Position numbers and translations under genes: made by a program. Below are positions 38,181 to 63,699 of a stretch of 64,000 nt of DNA, piece by piece. The stretch is from an uncultured Methanosarcinales archaeon (GTDB lineage Archaea > Nanobdellota > Nanobdellia > Woesearchaeales > CAZYIM01). Every line of letters starts with the position of its first letter. Positions within the stretch are counted from its first letter, which is position 1. The stretch lies in contig CAZYIM010000001.1 in assembly GCA_964647565.1 (NCBI GenBank), positions 32,001-96,000 on the forward strand, written 5' to 3'. Below the pieces are notes generated by a model. The model did not search any database. It was not told where the DNA came from and saw only the letters and a program-made list of their open reading frames with translations.

Positions 38181-38894
38181 ATGAGTAAAGAAAACAAAGA
38201 AAATAATGTAATACGAATCAGCAAATCGACTTTATGGATGTCAATCTCTGCTATCCTAGCGGTTTTGCTTGTGATTTCAATATTTACCGGCGGTTTTGGG
38301 GGAAAGACTTCTGCAACAGGTGCTGTTGTAGATGATAGTGCCAAAGCAGCCCAATCTCGAGATGCACAAAAGGCGCCTGGGGATTCAACAGACAACACAG
38401 CTATCGTGGTTGAAGGTAGAGCATTTAAGGGAGCTGAAGATGCCAAAGTAACAATAGTGGAATATTCGAGTTTTTCATGTGGATATTGTAATAGGGTAAG
38501 AGCAACAATAGACCAAATATTGGAAAATTATCCAGATGATGTAAAGATTGTTTACAAGCATTTCACTAGAGGAGGAACCGATAGTATGACTGCTCAAGCA
38601 ACTGAGTGTGCAGGAGATCAAGGAAAATTCTGGGAAATGCACGATATCATATTTGACAAAGGATCCTCTGGCGATGTTAAAGGTTATGCTAAAGATATCG
38701 GTTTGGATGCTGACAGTTTTGCAGAATGTCTTGATTCAGGAAAATATGCTTCAAGAGTTAATGAAGATACTTCAGAAGGACGTTCTTTGGGCATAAGAGG
38801 AACTCCAAGTTTTAATATTAATGGAGAACTTGTAGTTGGAGCCCAACCATATAATGCATTCCAACAGGTAATCGATGCAGAGCTCGCAAAATGA
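38181..38894 (+). CDS. DsbA-family thioredoxin-fold protein
   Basis: VTIVEYSSFSCGYC, ECAGDQGKFWEMHD, GTPSF and GAQP motifs. Confidence 0.9.
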   Translation: MSKENKENNVIRISKSTLWMSISAILAVLLVISIFTGGFGGKTSATGAVVDDSAKAAQSRDAQKAPGDSTDNTAIVVEGRAFKGAEDAKVTIVEYSSFSCGYCNRVRATIDQILENYPDDVKIVYKHFTRGGTDSMTAQATECAGDQGKFWEMHDIIFDKGSSGDVKGYAKDIGLDADSFAECLDSGKYASRVNEDTSEGRSLGIRGTPSFNINGELVVGAQPYNAFQQVIDAELAK

Positions 38895-56174: not shown

Positions 56175-57089
56175 ATGTATGATCTGGTTGGTCTGACCAA
56201 TGCTATCACAGACGTGGTTGTTGGGGTAAAGGAAAAGGATTTAACAAGGTTTGGTCTAAATAAAGGAGTCTATAATCGAAGAAGTGAAATCCCTTTTGAT
56301 GAGATTCTCAAATTTATGTCTTTGAGTGATTCTGTATCCATTCCAGGAGGCTCGCCAGCCAATGTTGTGCACGGAGTTGCTAAACTTGGTGGCAAGACAG
56401 CCCTCTTTGGCACTGTTGGCAAGGATAACTATGGCACCTTGTTCAGAGAGCATATTGTCAGTGCAGGAATAGATCCATTCATAAGAACAGTCGAGGGAAA
56501 AAGTGCGGTATGTTATATTCTAGTTACACCTGATGGAGAAAAGACCCCCTTTGCAGACCTTGGTGTTGCAAACCAGTTTGAATATACTAAGGAACTGATG
56601 GCAAATACAAAGATGTTTCACACTTCCGGCTATGAGCTGGTCAACAATCCAGAGAAGACTAGGGAGCTAATTGAATATGCATTGTCAAGAGGCGCCATTT
56701 TGAGCTATGACCTGGCAGCGCCCATTGAGATTGCAAAAGAGAGGAAACAGGTAGAGGATTTATTGGCTGAGGTTGATGTGCTCTTTTCTACAGAGGAAGA
56801 ATGCACAGAGATAATGGAGATGGAGCTTGAGTATGCAGAGGCACAATTAGCAGATATTGTACCGGTCCTGGCCTTGAAAAGAGGTGCAAGGGGATCCACT
56901 GTCTATAAAGGCGGGAATAAACAGGACATACCTATAGTTGATGTGAGGATTATAAACAGAAACGGTGCTGGCGATGGCTATGCAGCTGGTTTCCTGAGCG
57001 AATATCTCAAAGGCTCAGATGTTGAAACTTGCGGCAAGAAAGGCAGTGAATATGCTGCGTATGTTTGTTCTAGAGTGCAGCCGTTTTAA
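56175..57089 (+). CDS. PfkB family kinase (adenosine kinase-like)
   Basis: NAITD, PGGSPAN, KRGARGS and NGAGDGY motifs. Confidence 0.88.
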   Translation: MYDLVGLTNAITDVVVGVKEKDLTRFGLNKGVYNRRSEIPFDEILKFMSLSDSVSIPGGSPANVVHGVAKLGGKTALFGTVGKDNYGTLFREHIVSAGIDPFIRTVEGKSAVCYILVTPDGEKTPFADLGVANQFEYTKELMANTKMFHTSGYELVNNPEKTRELIEYALSRGAILSYDLAAPIEIAKERKQVEDLLAEVDVLFSTEEECTEIMEMELEYAEAQLADIVPVLALKRGARGSTVYKGGNKQDIPIVDVRIINRNGAGDGYAAGFLSEYLKGSDVETCGKKGSEYAAYVCSRVQPF

Positions 57090-59365
57090 GGGTAGGTTTC
57101 AGTCTTATGCAAGAAAAGTGAATCATAATCTTTAGCTAAACTTACATCATAATAGTGAAGACGCTCACCTAGCTCTTCAGGTCCAAAGAAATGTTTTGTC
57201 CCATCTGCTTTTGGAAAGGAAACTGCTATATTAAAATAGCTGCATACTGCCCTGAAGAGTTCTTCAGGATATCTGTCAAAAGAACTTGTTCCCAAGCATT
57301 TCCCAAGATCATATTCACTCTGGTTATGGGTAACCCCGACGAGTTTTGTTTTGTTAATCCTGTCTTCATACATCTCGATCTTGAGTTTTGTGTACTGCAG
57401 CTTGAATTGGTCAATGCCTGCAGGAACAAGACCTGCTTCATGTGACAAGGGCTCCATTACAGTTACATTATCAGTGTCAAGGTATGACTTGATCATTTCT
57501 GATGAATCATTGACATCCTTATAAGGCAGAACATAAACCTTACCACCTTCTTCAATATGTCTATCAAGATCTGGTTTCATGCAGAACTCATTGTACTGAT
57601 ACCATTCATTGTCTAGATGTGTTTTGGCCAGATCAGGATGCAAGATGATATAGGCTTCATATTTCCGGTCTGCAGGTTCTGTTTCGCCTGTAAGCATCTT
57701 TTCCTGGGTTATTGCTGTGATCTCAAGAGGTTTTATATCTTCAACGAACTTTTTACTTTTCATTTGTGCAATTCTACCCCTGAGTTCCGGCAAAGGGATG
57801 CCCATGTTGAATTCCAATAATCTCAATATGTTTCCACAAGCCTGATCATCCATTTTCTCGAAATACCAATATCTTGCGCCAGATAAAACACCTAAAAGCA
57901 CATCGTATTGATAAATTTCATCCAAAGTTTCAGGAGTGACAGTTTCCCCTTTTAGTTCATTCTGAGTGACCTTCAAAAGATGAGCTTTCCACTCTTCCTG
58001 ATATGGCAGTAAGTTTTCCTCACCACCATGTTTATTATAATGACGTTCAGTTGTAACATCTTCACCACTATTTATCTTATCTATATTATCTTGAGATTCT
58101 CTACTGTAAACATGACCATTTATCATTCCCCTGCTAGTGCATTCAAGATAATAATGTATGAAATCACTGCTTAAATTTTCATAATAGTACCTTATCTTTC
58201 CTGCCACCTCAGGATTGAACTTGACAGCTGTATGGCCGATGTCTTCATAGACATAATGAAGGTCATTCCAATTGCCTAATTGGTCTACATTAAGCTGTGT
58301 TAATAAATAGTCAAGCAGGCCCATGCCAATCACTCTCTTTTGGTCTGGAGTGATCTTGTCTTTGATTTTGCTCATTCTAAAATGCATTAATCTGAAATGG
58401 ATGCTCAGTCCTTGATCGATATTATCAATAACCTTATGATAGATTTTTGTAGCTTCTTCGTCTACAGCACCAGTTTCATCAAGCACTTTTTCTTCCAGTG
58501 ATTTTTTAAGAAGTTCTTTAACTGGATTTTTGGTTCCATACAGATGATAGAATGCGCCTATCGGCTCATTAGATCTTTTAACTATGGCTTTTGTTTCTTG
58601 TTTGGGTATTTCTACGCCATATTGAGGGAACAAGGATAATGATTCATCTGACAATGCCCTGAAATCATAAATGCCAAGCCATCTGTCCCAGAGTGAGCTT
58701 TGCCCTCTGTGATCAAAAAAGCCTGGAATCTGTCTTTTTACCAGTTCCTCATAGAACTTGATATATCTGTCATCAAACTTCTTGATATCCAATGGCTCCA
58801 GCTTAACTGATGCTCTCAATGGATTGAATGTAGTAGGTAATAGTAAAAGATTGACTCCATAATAATCCTTCAGCTCATCTGGAAGCAGATTATATTCTGG
58901 AACTTTTAATAGGGTTTTTTTAAGGTTTCTAGCAGAAATATCTGGGTTGGTCCAGGTCTTGCCCTTTTTTTCCAAGATGCCTGATTCAAGAAGAGCTCGA
59001 GGGATATTACTGGAGATTTCTGTGGCAGCTGTGTCCAATTCATTAAAAGTCTTGAATTCACCTGAATATCCTTGAAAAGATTTGAAGAGTGATGTTGCAA
59101 TAGCAAGATATATTGGAAATTTGAAATCTGGTAGAAGAATGCCAGGAATCCTATTAAGCCCTTGAGCAAGTTTCCTTATCCTATCCAGCTTGCTCTTATA
59201 CTCACCTTTTTGAAATTTGTTGTAAGCCCAGTCAACTTCTTGATCCAGGCCAAAGAATCCAAAGTCCGGCGGTGTATCTGCTGGGAAAAACAGTTCCTGA
59301 CCATCTTTATCAAGGGCAATGTTCCTAAGATCTGGAACGTCCGAATTCCTTTTTACAGGTAGCAT
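57086..59365 (-). CDS. large hypothetical protein
   Basis: About 760-aa ORF with no motif recognised; start uncertain. Confidence 0.7.
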   Translation of the reverse strand: MLPVKRNSDVPDLRNIALDKDGQELFFPADTPPDFGFFGLDQEVDWAYNKFQKGEYKSKLDRIRKLAQGLNRIPGILLPDFKFPIYLAIATSLFKSFQGYSGEFKTFNELDTAATEISSNIPRALLESGILEKKGKTWTNPDISARNLKKTLLKVPEYNLLPDELKDYYGVNLLLLPTTFNPLRASVKLEPLDIKKFDDRYIKFYEELVKRQIPGFFDHRGQSSLWDRWLGIYDFRALSDESLSLFPQYGVEIPKQETKAIVKRSNEPIGAFYHLYGTKNPVKELLKKSLEEKVLDETGAVDEEATKIYHKVIDNIDQGLSIHFRLMHFRMSKIKDKITPDQKRVIGMGLLDYLLTQLNVDQLGNWNDLHYVYEDIGHTAVKFNPEVAGKIRYYYENLSSDFIHYYLECTSRGMINGHVYSRESQDNIDKINSGEDVTTERHYNKHGGEENLLPYQEEWKAHLLKVTQNELKGETVTPETLDEIYQYDVLLGVLSGARYWYFEKMDDQACGNILRLLEFNMGIPLPELRGRIAQMKSKKFVEDIKPLEITAITQEKMLTGETEPADRKYEAYIILHPDLAKTHLDNEWYQYNEFCMKPDLDRHIEEGGKVYVLPYKDVNDSSEMIKSYLDTDNVTVMEPLSHEAGLVPAGIDQFKLQYTKLKIEMYEDRINKTKLVGVTHNQSEYDLGKCLGTSSFDRYPEELFRAVCSYFNIAVSFPKADGTKHFFGPEELGERLHYYDVSLAKDYDSLFLHKTETYP

Positions 59366-59432
59366 ATATGCAGAAAAACACACTTCCTCTTTATAAAGGT
59401 TTTGATTTTTTACCACTAATGGGTGATAAAAC

Positions 59433-60113
59433 TCAAAGCCTGTTTGTCTTTAAATACCATTCCTTGCGGAACTGGATTAAGAAGGATCTCATAAATGTAT
59501 GACGATCTTCTGCAAGCTTATGCGCAGTCTCTGTATTCATGTTATCCTTTAATTTCAGCAGTTTATCATAGAAATGATGTATTGCAGATGGTTCTGCAGC
59601 ATCATGCTCATCATATGTTGCTTTTTCCTGTACCAGATCAGGATTCCAAAGAGCCATCTTGTGTGCCCCTGCATAGGAAAAAGCCCTTGAAACGCCTATA
59701 GCCCCTAATGCATCAAGGTTGTCTGCGTCCTGAACAATCAAAGTGTTGATGTCAGTGACCTGGTTGCCTTTTTTAGAGAATGAATAGTTCTCGTGATGTT
59801 CTATGCAGTAAAGGATCATTTTTTGCTTATCCAATGGCATCCTGCACTCATCCAGAATAATCTTGGCTTCACCTAAAGATTCCTTGGGAGAAACATATTG
59901 TTCCCTGTCAACAGACATGAACCTGTGCAGGTCATGGATAGAAAGGGCAGTACCGATCACCAATCTGTCGCCACCTTCACGCTCCTGTATATAAAGGCCT
60001 AGATCTCGTGCTCTCTTGTGATGGTAGAGATCATGATCAGGCGAAAAACAATCAGTATACAACTCCATATGCTTGTCCAGAATCATGAATAATTGTTCAA
60101 GCTGCTCTTCCAT
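59433..60113 (-). CDS. HD domain phosphohydrolase (YedJ-like)
   Basis: HDLYH, IHD, QDADNLDALGAIG and HFYDKLLKL motifs. Confidence 0.88.
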   Translation of the reverse strand: MEEQLEQLFMILDKHMELYTDCFSPDHDLYHHKRARDLGLYIQEREGGDRLVIGTALSIHDLHRFMSVDREQYVSPKESLGEAKIILDECRMPLDKQKMILYCIEHHENYSFSKKGNQVTDINTLIVQDADNLDALGAIGVSRAFSYAGAHKMALWNPDLVQEKATYDEHDAAEPSAIHHFYDKLLKLKDNMNTETAHKLAEDRHTFMRSFLIQFRKEWYLKTNRL

Positions 60114-60576
60114 AAGATTGGGAAAAATTAACTAGTTTATAATCCTTTCTTTTAAGGCGGACATACATCCTCTCGTAAGGGAATTGTTTGGTTCCAAAGC
60201 CATGCTCATCCCTAAGATAGAGTGCCCTGTTTGAGTCAAAAGCCACCTTGAAATGCGGTGTTTTCTGAGCCCATATAGACTCATAGCAGCTTGGTCCAAA
60301 ATGTATGAATTCGACAAGATGATCTTTCTGCCATTTCCGTTCCATATGGCAGTATTCTAATACGCTTGGTTTTCCCCAGTCCGGTTGTATATCGTCCTTG
60401 AAAAGATCATCAGAAGTGGATGATTTACCTTTTCTCGAATAGAATTCTAATTTCGTTCCCTTGGGTTCAAACAGCTGTTTAAGTTGTTCTTCAAAAGCCA
60501 GGAAGTTATCATACATAAGATCATAAGGTTCCATTGAATTAACTAGTTCTACCAATTGATTGTGGTTAAGAGACAT
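60097..60576 (-). CDS. hypothetical protein
   Basis: 159-aa ORF overlapping the start of the HD gene. Confidence 0.6.
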   Translation of the reverse strand: MSLNHNQLVELVNSMEPYDLMYDNFLAFEEQLKQLFEPKGTKLEFYSRKGKSSTSDDLFKDDIQPDWGKPSVLEYCHMERKWQKDHLVEFIHFGPSCYESIWAQKTPHFKVAFDSNRALYLRDEHGFGTKQFPYERMYVRLKRKDYKLVNFSQSYGRAA

Positions 60577-60649: not shown

Positions 60650-61174
60650 ATGAACGTAAAAGAAGCTATTGAAAAAAGAAGGAGTATTAGGAAGTATGAT
60701 GACAAAGAGGTTACCGAAGAGGTTTTAAGGGAGCTTATCGACGCTGCTAGACTGGCGCCGTCAGGCAACAATGCCCAGCCATGGTATTTCAAGATAGTTA
60801 CCAGTGCAGAGGACAAAAAGAAACTGAAGGATAGTAATATGTATCCGCAGGACTTTGTCTATACTGCACCAGTGCTTATTATTTGTTGTGCAGATCCAAG
60901 CGTCTATCCTGCTGGCGAATTCATCAAGGGCATGGATCATCCAAACCAGGTAAGGGCCATAAGGGACCTGTCGTTGGCTTGCGAGAATTTAGTGTTAAGA
61001 GCTGTTGAGCTTGGACTTGGCACCTGCTATATTGGATGGATGGACAAGGAAAAGGTCAAGGATCTGCTGGATATACCAAAGGATTACATTGTTCCCTACA
61101 CAATAACTGTAGGCTATCCTGCTGGTGGAGCCGGTGAGCCAAAGAAGAAGAGTGCTGACGATATTTTACTTTAG
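60650..61174 (+). CDS. nitroreductase family protein
   Basis: RRSIRKY, APSGNNAQPW, LGLGTC and VGYP motifs. Confidence 0.93.
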   Translation: MNVKEAIEKRRSIRKYDDKEVTEEVLRELIDAARLAPSGNNAQPWYFKIVTSAEDKKKLKDSNMYPQDFVYTAPVLIICCADPSVYPAGEFIKGMDHPNQVRAIRDLSLACENLVLRAVELGLGTCYIGWMDKEKVKDLLDIPKDYIVPYTITVGYPAGGAGEPKKKSADDILL

Positions 61175-61196: not shown

Positions 61197-61664
61197 ATGC
61201 AAGAGCTATACATAGATGATATTATTGAGAAGACTAAGAAATTAAGCAAAGAGAAGAAGCATAAGAAGACAAAATTCTATAACTTAATTGGTGAAGTCGT
61301 GCCTGATGAATGCCACATCCATCTTTCTACCAAAGAATGCACTATAATCATATTTGACGAAAAAAAACAGAGCTACACGAAAGCAGCAGTAGATTATAAA
61401 TCAGGATCATATCAAGGTAGAACAATTCTCCCGACAGATGAAATTTTCAGTCTCGATAACTATAAAGCTACCTCCTCAATTATTCCAAGCTATTGCTTTA
61501 ATTATCCTTCTAATAAATGGACTGTTGGCCCGTTTATTCTGTTTGTAAAAAAAATATTCACACACAATCACTCTCCTGTTGCTGAAATCGGACAGTTGAT
61601 AGATAAAGATTATCCTGTAAAGTATTACGCACCAAGAACAGATAAGATACCAACAATAGAATAA
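61197..61664 (+). CDS. paralogue 1 of the tandem 'IPTIE' family, function unknown
   Basis: MQELYIDD...RTDKIPTIE; GGTGG RBS. Confidence 0.8.
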   Translation: MQELYIDDIIEKTKKLSKEKKHKKTKFYNLIGEVVPDECHIHLSTKECTIIIFDEKKQSYTKAAVDYKSGSYQGRTILPTDEIFSLDNYKATSSIIPSYCFNYPSNKWTVGPFILFVKKIFTHNHSPVAEIGQLIDKDYPVKYYAPRTDKIPTIE

Positions 61665-61666
61665 AA

Positions 61667-62119
61667 ATGCAAGAGCTATACATAGATGATGTGATTGAGA
61701 AAGCACATGATCTAGAAAAACAAAAGAAGTATAAGAAAAAGATTTTCACAGAACGTCTCTTGGCTTTGATGCCAAAAAAAGGTCACATAGTACTCAGCGG
61801 CAAGAGGGGAGATATCATCATTTATGATCAGAAAAGCCAGTCCTATAGAAAAGCTTTATTTGATATCGAAGACGGCAATCCGATTGCAGGAAACCAACTT
61901 TTTGAGATCGAAGATTACAAACCGTCCATACCAATAACTAATGAATACTTGATGGATGAGTTAACCACTGCTAAAGAAGCTGCAAATTTTATTTGTTTTT
62001 TAATAGGATTACATGACAAATACAAATCTCCAGTCATTGAGTTCGGCAGGAGAGCAAACAGATATTTTCCTATAAAGGCTTACTCTCAAAGAACAGACAG
62101 GATACCAACAATAGAATAA
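61667..62119 (+). CDS. paralogue 2 of the tandem 'IPTIE' family
   Basis: MQELYIDD...RTDRIPTIE. Confidence 0.8.
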   Translation: MQELYIDDVIEKAHDLEKQKKYKKKIFTERLLALMPKKGHIVLSGKRGDIIIYDQKSQSYRKALFDIEDGNPIAGNQLFEIEDYKPSIPITNEYLMDELTTAKEAANFICFLIGLHDKYKSPVIEFGRRANRYFPIKAYSQRTDRIPTIE

Positions 62120-62121
62120 AA

Positions 62122-62613
62122 ATGGAAATACCAACAATAGATGACTGGCTGGAAAAAGCAGATCAATTAAGCCAAAAGAAAAAATATAAGAACAAAAACC
62201 TAGTTGAGAGACTGGGCAATATAATGCCTAAAAAAGGTAAGTTTTACCTGTCCGGTAAGCAAGGCACTGTCATATATTTTAATATTCCAAGTGAGAGCTA
62301 TAAGCAAGCCATCCTGGGATTCAGTAATAAACAAGAGGCCCAGTTCGAATATAATTTAGAATATATCTTTCCGGGAGAAAAATCATTCAGTCTTGAAGGC
62401 TATAAAGCAACAATTCCAATAACCAACAAAGAATTTTTTTATTATCCCTATAAGTCAGAAGAAAAGCACAATGGTGCTCAATTCCTTTATTTTATCCTTA
62501 AGTTGTTCAAGGAGTACAAATCACCAATCATGCAGATAGGACAAAAAAAGAACAGGTTCTATCCGTTCCAGTTCTACGGCCCAAGAAAAGACAAGATACC
62601 AACAATAGAATAA
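62122..62613 (+). CDS. paralogue 3 of the tandem 'IPTIE' family
   Basis: MEIPTIDD...RKDKIPTIE. Confidence 0.8.
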   Translation: MEIPTIDDWLEKADQLSQKKKYKNKNLVERLGNIMPKKGKFYLSGKQGTVIYFNIPSESYKQAILGFSNKQEAQFEYNLEYIFPGEKSFSLEGYKATIPITNKEFFYYPYKSEEKHNGAQFLYFILKLFKEYKSPIMQIGQKKNRFYPFQFYGPRKDKIPTIE

Positions 62614-62615
62614 AA

Positions 62616-63107
62616 ATGGAAATACCAACAATAGATGATTACATTGAAAAAGCAGAAGACCTTAAAAAAGAGAAAAGGTACAAGAAGATGGGAATATGGC
62701 AGAGACTTTGCTATGTAATGCCTAAAAAGGGCAAGTGCCATCTGTCTGGAAAGCACGGCACTGTAATCATCTATGACGAAGAAAGCCAGAGCTACAGGGA
62801 TGCTATCTTATTTCATTTTGATAAACCAGAAGAATCATATAATTATAGATCACAGTATTTCCTTGCAGGAGAAAAGACCTTTAGTTTGGAAGGTTATAAG
62901 ATAGATACTCCAATTATAAATAGAGAAGAAAGGGGGACTCCTAGTGAAGAAAATGTAAACAAATCTGTAGTGCATTTCCTCTATTTCTTCCTTAATTTGT
63001 TTGAGGAGTTCAAATCACCTGTCATGCAGATAGGCCAGTTTGAGAACCGGTTTTTCCCCTTCCAATTCTACTCATTACGTACAGATAAGATACCGACAAT
63101 AGAATGA
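62616..63107 (+). CDS. paralogue 4 of the tandem 'IPTIE' family
   Basis: MEIPTIDD...RTDKIPTIE. Confidence 0.8.
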   Translation: MEIPTIDDYIEKAEDLKKEKRYKKMGIWQRLCYVMPKKGKCHLSGKHGTVIIYDEESQSYRDAILFHFDKPEESYNYRSQYFLAGEKTFSLEGYKIDTPIINREERGTPSEENVNKSVVHFLYFFLNLFEEFKSPVMQIGQFENRFFPFQFYSLRTDKIPTIE

Positions 63108-63126
63108 AAATATATAAGGTGATAAA

Positions 63127-63699
63127 ATGCAACAAGCAATATTAAACGATTTTTATATGTTAATCATAGACCTGTCAGCAAAAGCAGAAGAAGAAAAGGA
63201 AAACAAGCCCAAGGGAAAAAAACAGCTAGGTTTTAAGTTTCTGAATAAGAAAGATGTTTCAAAATCTGAGACTAACGAAATTTCCAATAAGATTGATGAG
63301 CTGCTAAAAAATAAGAAATTTCTGCTAAAGACTGATTGGGTAACTTATGTTATAGCAGACGAAGAAACAAAGACCTATAGAATTGCAGAATTTGACACAA
63401 TCAAAGGCCAGCCATGCCCTTCAGGACATTTGGTCAATATGAATGATTACAAGCCGGATACAGAGATGTTTATCACAGGTTTCCCTTGTTCAGAATATCG
63501 AAAGGATGGCGGTCCAAAGAATAGGGAGTCAAATACATTAAATTTTTTCGAATCACTTTTAAAGATGCACAGAGCTGAGATTATAGAGATAGGAACAAAT
63601 GAGACATTAGTGTCTACCCAAGCAATAAAAAAAAGATTCTATCCTATGAAATTCTATGGTCAAAGAACAGACAGGATACCAACAATAGAGGAGATCTAA
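63127..63699 (+). CDS. paralogue 5 (divergent) of the tandem 'IPTIE' family
   Basis: ...FYPMKFYGQRTDRIPTIEEI; GGTGA RBS. Confidence 0.8.
   Translation: MQQAILNDFYMLIIDLSAKAEEEKENKPKGKKQLGFKFLNKKDVSKSETNEISNKIDELLKNKKFLLKTDWVTYVIADEETKTYRIAEFDTIKGQPCPSGHLVNMNDYKPDTEMFITGFPCSEYRKDGGPKNRESNTLNFFESLLKMHRAEIIEIGTNETLVSTQAIKKRFYPMKFYGQRTDRIPTIEEI

Follow-up and report, generated by a model that had tools for sequence, protein, structure and literature searches.

The stretch of DNA considered here, 64,000 nucleotides (nt) of contig CAZYIM010000001.1 from the assembly of an uncultured archaeon (GCA_964647565.1), is referred to at its full length as the window. Close to its end begins a tandem array of seven head-to-tail paralogous genes, p1 to p7, which extends from window position 61197 to window-equivalent position 64756. 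As p6 crosses the end of the window and p7 lies wholly beyond it, the size of the array is seven members, neither five nor six. The proteins are 150–190 amino acids (aa) long and are 20–53% identical in pairwise comparisons. The unit spacings (455, 494 and 494 nt) are regular, and the array evidently grew by unit duplication.

The genes of the array share a 14-nt sequence, ATACCAACAATAGA, at their ends. Seven exact copies were found in the whole 2.68-Mb genome and every one is inside the array, at the tails of p1, p2, p3, p5 and p6 and at the heads of p3 and p4. Six are on the + strand within the window (at 61647, 62102, 62128, 62596, 62622 and 63676), and the seventh, the tail of p6, is past its end at window-equivalent position 64173. 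When up to two mismatches were allowed, the window contained 8 matches against 0.74 expected, a number reached in 0 of 100 shuffles; these include a copy with one mismatch (CCG) at 63090 and a separate, unrelated match with two mismatches at 38499. With the variant tails of p4 and p7 counted, there are nine same-strand copies in 3.6 kb. An earlier note, which was made from the sequence alone, had reported the 14-mer at the ends of p1, p2, p3 and p5, with the CCG change in p4, and at the starts of p3 and p4. The copy search bears this out and extends it to seven genes and nine copies, with one correction at the end of p5, where the 14-mer is present but the gene continues for two codons past it (IPTIEEI). 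The genome scan that the note had proposed found the 14-mer nowhere outside the array, and it is therefore not a general signal.

The identity at the gene ends is not confined to the 14-mer. Junctions 2/3 and 3/4 share a 44-nt sequence without a single difference, which is the one quoted in the note, and the different head that it had ascribed to p1 and p2 is also real, the two genes sharing 26 nt that consist of AA followed by ATGCAAGAGCTATACATAGATGAT. All eight exact direct repeats of at least 17 nt in the array are at gene ends, with none in the gene bodies. The longest are the 44-nt junctions, a 30-nt repeat in the tails of p2 and p5 (which are not neighbours and whose proteins are 30% identical) and the 26-nt repeat formed by the heads of p1 and p2 with the two preceding bases; the remaining tail-pair repeats are 26, 24, 20, 19 and 17 nt long. 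The features are listed in Table 1.

Table 1. Genes, repeats and neighbouring features of the p1–p7 array, and three other tandem arrays of the same genome. Positions are those of the window or, past its end, window-equivalent (w.e.) positions; SD, Shine-Dalgarno sequence.
Feature	Position	Strand	Remarks
p1	61197..61664	+	155 aa; own upstream SD AGGTGG; head MQELYIDD, tail RTDKIPTIE
p2	61667..62119	+	150 aa; ATG 2 nt past p1 stop (TAAAAATG); no SD
p3	62122..62613	+	163 aa; ATG 2 nt past p2 stop; no SD; head MEIPTIDD with 14-mer copy
p4	62616..63107	+	163 aa; head with 14-mer copy; tail CCG for CCA
p5	63127..63699	+	190 aa; most divergent member; tail IPTIE + EI
p6	63699..64190 (w.e.; contig C1 95699-96190)	+	163 aa; exact tail 14-mer 64173-64186; overlaps p7 start (ATGA)
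p7	64187..64756 (w.e.)	+	189 aa; last gene; tail ATTCCGACAATAGA (ATT and CCG), two synonymous changes
14-mer, p1 tail	61647..61660	+	at -20..-7 of p2 start
Junction module 2/3, 44 nt	62101..62144	+	G, tail 14-mer, ATAAAA, ATGGAA, head 14-mer, TGA
Junction module 3/4, 44 nt	62595..62638	+	identical to junction 2/3
14-mer variant CCG, p4 tail	63090..63103	+	adjoins no start
14-mer, p5 tail	63676..63689	+	inside 30-nt stretch identical to p2 tail
Nitroreductase-family gene	60650..61174	+	ends 22 nt before p1, same strand
776-aa open reading frame	57086..59416	-	upstream of array
159-aa open reading frame	60097..60576	-	upstream of array
Arrestin-like gene	64763..65665 (w.e.)	-	300 aa; convergent on array, just past p7
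C14 array	C14:135-4325	+	heads 0.70-0.72 over 30 codons, tail 13/14; heads MTEKDDIIEN..SGRKPRRV
C18 array	C18:2186-4995	-	head 0.65, tail 8/8; lipoprotein-like, conserved signal peptides and last residues
C41 array	C41:16306-19368	-	head 0.62, tail 7/12; lipoprotein-like, conserved signal peptides and last residues

Codon identity at the gene ends

The 14-mer encodes the C-terminal tag D[KR]IPTIE, which is invariant in all seven paralogues, and the earlier note had named the codon bias of an AT-rich genome as an alternative to its proposal that the junction is conserved at the DNA level. That codon bias and a conserved peptide alone explain the 14-mer can almost be dismissed. The five tag codons are all among the commoner synonyms (usage in 1336 long open reading frames (ORFs) of the genome was ATA 0.35, CCA 0.30, ACA 0.39 and GAA 0.61), but with this usage ATA-CCA-ACA-ATA is expected in only about 1.5% of IPTI peptides (P 0.015 per gene). 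In the five tails that abut a start, 24 of the 25 tag codons match the consensus, which has a probability of approximately 2e-9 with the codon usage of the genome and 7e-7 with that of the tails of coupled genes, if the tails are independent.

A codon alignment of the seven genes, in which pairs sharing a residue were scored for use of the same codon, led to the same conclusion. In the last 12 alignment columns the codon was the same in 121 of 159 pairs, a fraction of 0.76 against 0.38 expected, and the top five of 109 sliding nine-column windows were all at the tail. The corresponding fraction in the gene bodies was 0.44 (382 of 867 pairs) against 0.42 expected, indicating that the bodies are saturated at synonymous sites; they thus serve as internal controls. 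Residues that are invariant in the bodies show no codon identity, with the same codon in 3/21 pairs for L at column 97, 7/21 for A at column 117 and 11/21 for Y at column 223. The nucleotide identity of the junctions therefore exceeds what the protein and codon bias require, in agreement with the note.

Junctions as translation initiation regions

The 3' end of the 16S rRNA, GGATCACCTCCT, indicates that the canonical SD applies in this organism (the 16S gene matched an archaeal small subunit rRNA model with 1405 bits; the model also matches bacteria in controls). At junctions 1/2, 2/3 and 3/4 the stop and start codons are arranged as TAA-AA-ATG, a spacing of +2 nt, and no 4-mer SD is present. 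Junction 6/7 is an ATGA overlap (-4 nt) that also lacks a 4-mer SD. An SD is found at the other two junctions, in one case AAGGTGAT in the 19-nt spacer downstream of p4, and in the other GAGGAG at junction 5/6 (TAATG, -1 nt), which comes from the two extra codons of p5. These codons, GAG ATC, follow the last GAG of the tag and spell GAGGAGATC (63684-63699), and the C-terminal extension of p5 appears to exist to supply the ribosome-binding site for p6. The tight spacing of coupled gene pairs is thus found at junctions 1/2, 2/3, 3/4, 5/6 and 6/7 and is absent from 4/5.

Elsewhere in the genome, 442 same-strand pairs are spaced at -4 to +5 nt, and a 4-mer SD is present in 59% of these compared with 23% of random positions, leaving approximately 41% of tight junctions without one. 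The spacings of same-strand pairs in the genome peak at -4 nt (258 pairs) and at +1 nt (75 pairs, typically TAA-A-ATG). Among 437 other tightly coupled genes, third positions in the tail show a mild preference for A, at a frequency of about 0.5 compared with 0.4, and SD-less junctions are 45–48% A.

The four SD-less starts of the array have very little predicted RNA structure. The minimum free energy of the region from -30 to +30 was -1.6, -2.8, -1.1 and -1.2 kcal/mol, compared with a median of -5.5 and a 90th percentile of -1.8 for 232 starts of the genome and with -3.5 to -5.1 for the SD-led starts of the array. When IPTIE was recoded in all 288 synonymous ways, none of the recodings was less structured than the native sequence at junctions 1/2, 2/3 and 3/4 (33–51 tied) and only 4/288 were at junction 6/7, whereas 146/288 were at the SD-bearing junction 5/6. 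RNAalifold found 0 pairs conserved over the seven aligned junctions, and there was no Rfam family or tRNA in the window. Scans for promoters (19 against 16.1 expected) and terminators (4 against 2.5) used bacterial consensus sequences and are not informative for an archaeon.

The exact tails are the five that abut or overlap a next start, and the changed ones are those of p4, which is followed by the 19-nt spacer, and p7, which is the last gene. Relative to the ATG, the block of 44 identical nt extends from -21 to +23, approximately the size of a ribosome footprint. As the genes are packed stop to start, the last five codons of one gene form the upstream half of the initiation region of the next. 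In Escherichia coli, the final 15 nt of the preceding gene are reported to have been enough for termination-reinitiation (Huber et al. 2023, PMC10666635), and in Haloferax the SD is described as not essential while undefined neighbouring sequence matters (Huber et al. 2019, PMC6728339).

The explanation that we favour, with a probability of roughly 0.4, is that the junction is a module with two uses, shaped by purifying selection on re-initiation together with at least one templated copying of a tail to a head. At the four SD-less junctions the next gene would be started by the ribosome that has just terminated, and the module, made up of the tag codons, the stop, AA, the ATG and the first codons, would be kept letter-exact by purifying selection on an unstructured region without an SD, in addition to the selection on the peptide. 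Re-initiation efficiency would then be the selective agent. The head copies of p3 and p4 would have had a single origin in their common ancestor, through short templated copying of the tail located 26 nt upstream, and would have been inherited by both genes when p3 and p4 duplicated. Two possible origins of the tail, translation running on into the head of the following gene and tandem duplication of 26 nt, were rejected, as copies 26 nt apart are mutually out of frame and the 12 nt after each copy are unmatched (4/12 by eye).

The C-terminal tag and its protein family

In all seven proteins IPTIE is preceded by [RDN][TK][DG][KR], and the protein ends in IPTIE in six and in IPTIEEI in one (p5). 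The tag was not found in any other frame of at least 60 codons in the genome. A profile search over 1.84 billion representative sequences produced 22 matches at E ≤0.001, made up of six of the array's own proteins, one spurious match and 15 distant metagenomic relatives (E 1e-20 to 6e-4). The spurious match, P0020, is an animal fibronectin-like repeat protein of 1486 aa with seven matched stretches, and was discarded. The clusters of nine of the relatives were looked up and are all singletons, none with an informative source name. One metagenomic protein, P0010 (245 aa), is identical over residues 111–245 (135 residues) to the relative P0009 while its first 110 residues are unrelated, and is either a fusion or the product of a chimeric contig.

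None of the 15 relatives has the RTD[KR]IPTIE tail. They end 0–10 residues past a conserved C-terminal Tyr, mostly within 4, and the tail has therefore been added in this lineage. At their heads the relatives follow the pattern M..[DQ][ILV]T[IL]DD[IV], to which MEIPTIDD of p3 and p4 is at least as near as MQELYIDD of p1 and p2.

Other searches recovered little. None of the seven paralogues matched a family in Pfam, NCBIfam or PADLOC, and sub-threshold matches to FAIM1 (0.047), DUF1985 (0.026) and VakA (0.0097) were treated as noise. The top feature score in the ESM Atlas was 0.76, which is under any useful level, and the four matches from a word-index protein search were all to the array's own proteins. 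The tail peptide pattern had 86 matches in metagenome contigs and five in genome contigs of the contig collections, none of which represents a relative. No orthologous array was found among 40 genomes of the order, 400 genomes of the phylum and two contig collections; the whole-genome searches gave one weak match at each level, with E 0.008 in the order and E 8e-6 (genome G324) in the phylum. The latter is to a tandem pair on contig C12 (L016:513-1932) whose members overlap by 11 nt; their products, of 247 and 228 aa, both lack an IPTIE tail.

In a tree built after the tails had been trimmed, p3 and p4 are sisters (support 100/98) and p5 groups with tail-less relatives (94/98). If the latter position is true, the tail of p5 was acquired secondarily. 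A single clade of all seven paralogues was not rejected, with a log-likelihood difference of 0.56 and a P value of 0.279 in the approximately unbiased (AU) test.

The AlphaFold2 model of p3, made with a seven-row alignment, is an alpha/beta structure with a mean predicted local distance difference test score (pLDDT) of 87.2 and a predicted template modelling score of 0.83. In the model the mean pLDDT falls to 50 in the block 161–163, from 81 in the preceding block, and the tail is thus probably disordered. A Foldseek search of the Protein Data Bank with this model had a best E of 0.23, and VIA-align against 48,161 chains gave a best Z of 3.4 (4evu_B, 63 residues aligned with a root-mean-square deviation of 2.7) and 0 chains at Z ≥5. 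No fold match was thus detected for the model, which does not in itself prove a new fold.

When p3 was modelled together with a second copy of itself (19-row alignment), the prediction supported a symmetric homodimer, with a score of 0.60 compared with 0.02 for the best of three controls. Agreement between the three runs covers at least 90% of their contacts, and the pLDDT of the partner is 84–86. The score, which is a model confidence, reached the mark used here in 20 of 30 proteins solved as same-chain pairs and in 1 of 23 solved as single chains, counts that apply only roughly to a custom alignment. The predicted interface comprises residues 52–60, 95–104 and 138–150, and names neither residues 1–8 nor 155–163, with the reservation that unnamed residues are uncertain rather than excluded. 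In this model the tag looks like a free C-terminal peptide available to another partner. The earlier note had suggested that equivalent N- and C-terminal strands might suit polymerization by strand exchange, and this finds no support in a predicted interface that names no terminus and a tail of low confidence. In donor-strand exchange polymers of the pilin-like kind a terminal strand completes the fold of the next subunit. The array represents an orphan family for which no fold match was detected, whose dimer is predicted with confidence and whose C-terminal tag is specific to the lineage.

Around the array, the nitroreductase-family gene is probably in the same transcription unit as p1. The protein encoded by the arrestin-like gene matches the eukaryote-type Arrestin_N (E 2e-14) and Arrestin_C (E 5e-12) and a short stretch of Rgp1, which is unusual in a small archaeon. 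The 776-aa and 159-aa ORFs upstream of the array had no Pfam, NCBIfam or PADLOC match.

Possible homogenization of gene ends and related systems

Several observations weigh against selection on re-initiation as the source of the identity. With codon usage taken into account, 11–20% of synonymous sets are as unstructured as the native one, and all-A third positions in the last five codons occur in only 26 of the 437 other coupled genes. A G precedes the 14-mer in 7/7 cases (as AAG or AGG) though AAA and AGA are commoner, which a general A-richness does not predict. The uncoupled tails of p4 and p7 keep 7/10 consensus codons against 4.0 expected (P = 0.051), and the heads of p1 and p2 are the same over seven codons (ATG and 21 nt in p2) despite the different, SD-bearing leader of p1. 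At other coupled junctions the only enriched words are SD-like, and those contained in the 14-mer are not among them. Complementarity to the 16S rRNA does not exceed chance, the best run being 6, and only 3/200 shuffles were as low. The position of the 14-mer relative to the next ATG also varies (-20..-7, -23..-10 or -14..-1). Finally, the conservation of gene ends in another array of this genome, C14, reaches 30 codons into the gene, with the proviso that arrays were chosen for repeated 14-mers and are thus a biased sample. Short-tract gene conversion accounts for these points better than selection on re-initiation does, and the same holds for the head copy of p3 and p4.

Gene conversion, or templated repair, of short tracts would re-homogenize only those ends that are still similar while the bodies drift; selection would act on the peptide alone and the fit to translation would be incidental. 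We consider this nearly as likely as the module under selection for re-initiation, and the two are not exclusive. Patches of identity far above the remaining divergence, as expected from gene conversion, are found in the array, and the confinement of the exact repeats to gene ends is consistent with it. A conflict between the genealogies of patch and body may be indicated by p2 and p5, whose tails are identical over 30 nt while the body of p5 is the most distant, but one clade of all seven genes is not rejected and selection gives the same pattern. The invariant G of the K/R codon and the identical heads of p1 and p2 are also accommodated. The 14-mer in the heads of p3 and p4 differs at 6/14 positions from the head of p6 (GAACTATATATTGA) and at 7/14 from that of p1 and p2 (GAGCTATACATAGA); as its sequence is that of the tail copy 26 nt upstream, a single act of templated copying is by far the more parsimonious origin, the alternative being six or seven substitutions. 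The most diverged tail is that of the end member, p7, and the last member of an array is usually the most diverged under conversion. The grouping of p5 with tail-less relatives, if true, points in the same direction.

Three further tandem arrays (C14, C18 and C41 in Table 1), unrelated to the p1–p7 array, were found by scanning the genome for 14-mers repeated at intervals of about the length of a gene. Each has codon-conserved heads and tails and near-random bodies. Conservation that extends 90 nt into a gene, as in C14, exceeds an initiation region and points to a general homogenizing process, within the limits of the biased choice of arrays.

On the other side, gene conversion does not predict that the exact copies should be those that abut a start, or that structure-minimizing codons should be found solely at SD-less junctions. 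Homology of 14–44 nt flanked by heterology is a poor substrate for recombination. As one clade of all seven genes was not rejected, the tail may have arisen just once, at an early stage. No polymorphism was seen in public sequence data, where the power to detect it is low. Array DNA was found in eight public runs, all marine or seawater metagenomes from two studies, with no RNA run among them. The contigs of four of these runs are identical to the reference, but at a depth of approximately 4–5, and as contigs drop rare variants, they have no power against such variants.

Another explanation, which we regard as unlikely, is that the 15-mer GATACCAACAATAGA is a dedicated SD-independent re-initiation element that also encodes a docking tag of the seven subunits. 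It would pass the terminating ribosome on to the next gene and so determine the ratio of the paralogues in a hetero-oligomer, and the in-frame copies at the starts of p3 and p4 would allow reversible fusing deletions of 26 nt. It is quite unlikely that the 15-mer is instead a sequence-specific binding site in mRNA or DNA for a regulator of the operon, a role that the array's own proteins might play. The conserved block does have a sharp 5' boundary and an invariant G that A-richness leaves unexplained, the nine same-strand copies are found nowhere else, and the region is single-stranded according to RNAalifold. The block, however, always coincides with the invariant peptide, which accounts for 10/15 positions, there is no candidate binder, and such a site has no precedent in the family of the array.

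The earlier note had offered a recombination site and translational coupling as possible roles for the junction. Gene conversion and coupling remain the two leading explanations, while the excision, circularization and shuffling of genes as cassettes is unsupported. The cassette model takes the repeats at heads and tails to be sites at which recombination excises, duplicates or shuffles whole genes. Both kinds of copy are translated as IPTI, and with this shared frame, which is a feature of the sequence, deletions between them would stay in frame, either fusing two genes (26 nt) or removing a unit (494 nt). The regular spacing and growth of the array by unit duplication are also in keeping with the model. 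We nevertheless consider it very unlikely. The contigs of the four runs (subject to their low depth) contain no joint, indel or loose end, and one of them bridges junction 2/3 in the reference order; the breaks in contigs at the 44-nt repeat are those expected from assembly with 31-mers. The repeats are direct, with no inverted repeat or structured site, and head copies are present in p3 and p4 only. The note had proposed a search for a nearby recombinase, and no integrase or recombinase family was found in the 41 neighbouring and array ORFs scanned with Pfam and NCBIfam (34 Pfam and 12 NCBIfam, overlapping), seven of the neighbours matching no family.

The p1–p7 array can be compared with several known systems. 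Hsp70 proteins end in ...PTIEEVD, which is bound by tetratricopeptide repeat clamps. The array tails are similar in having a predicted disordered acidic C-terminus that ends in a fixed short motif, and the letters PTIE (PTIEE in p5) coincide. The terminal EEVD, however, is absent from the array tails, and the array proteins are unrelated to Hsp70. The resemblance is a lead, and may be a chance coincidence.

Loci that generate antigenic variation by segmental gene conversion, such as Anaplasma msp2 and the Borrelia vlp/vsp genes with their homology sequences, resemble the array in that short conserved sequences bracket highly diverged bodies and are more alike than the protein requires. The array differs in consisting of complete, co-oriented and apparently co-expressed genes, rather than silent cassettes and an expression site, and its conserved blocks are just 15–44 nt long; variants were not observed in the four low-depth runs. 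If micro-conversion is the correct explanation, the array would be a case, in a DPANN-type archaeon, of concerted evolution acting on tracts only some tens of bases long.

Translationally coupled gene pairs of archaea and bacteria, as portrayed in PMC6728339 and PMC10666635, are on the same strand with spacings of -4, -1 or +2 nt, and the end of the first gene also serves as the initiation region of the second. In some the SD is dispensable, and they often encode subunits of one complex. The putatively coupled genes of the array share these features of layout, and differ in having one non-SD 15-mer at five junctions that also codes for an invariant peptide. Such a specific sequence is not described in the parts of the two papers that were consulted, where the requirements of SD-less re-initiation are termed gene-specific and unexplained. 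If selection on re-initiation is the correct explanation, the array would provide a compact sequence with which to probe what SD-less termination-reinitiation needs in archaea. The array offers a natural example of a short coding segment that is constrained twice, as a peptide tag and as the region where the next gene is initiated. It is a variant of two phenomena already described, the synonymous constraint of coupled genes and concerted evolution, found here in an orphan archaeal family.

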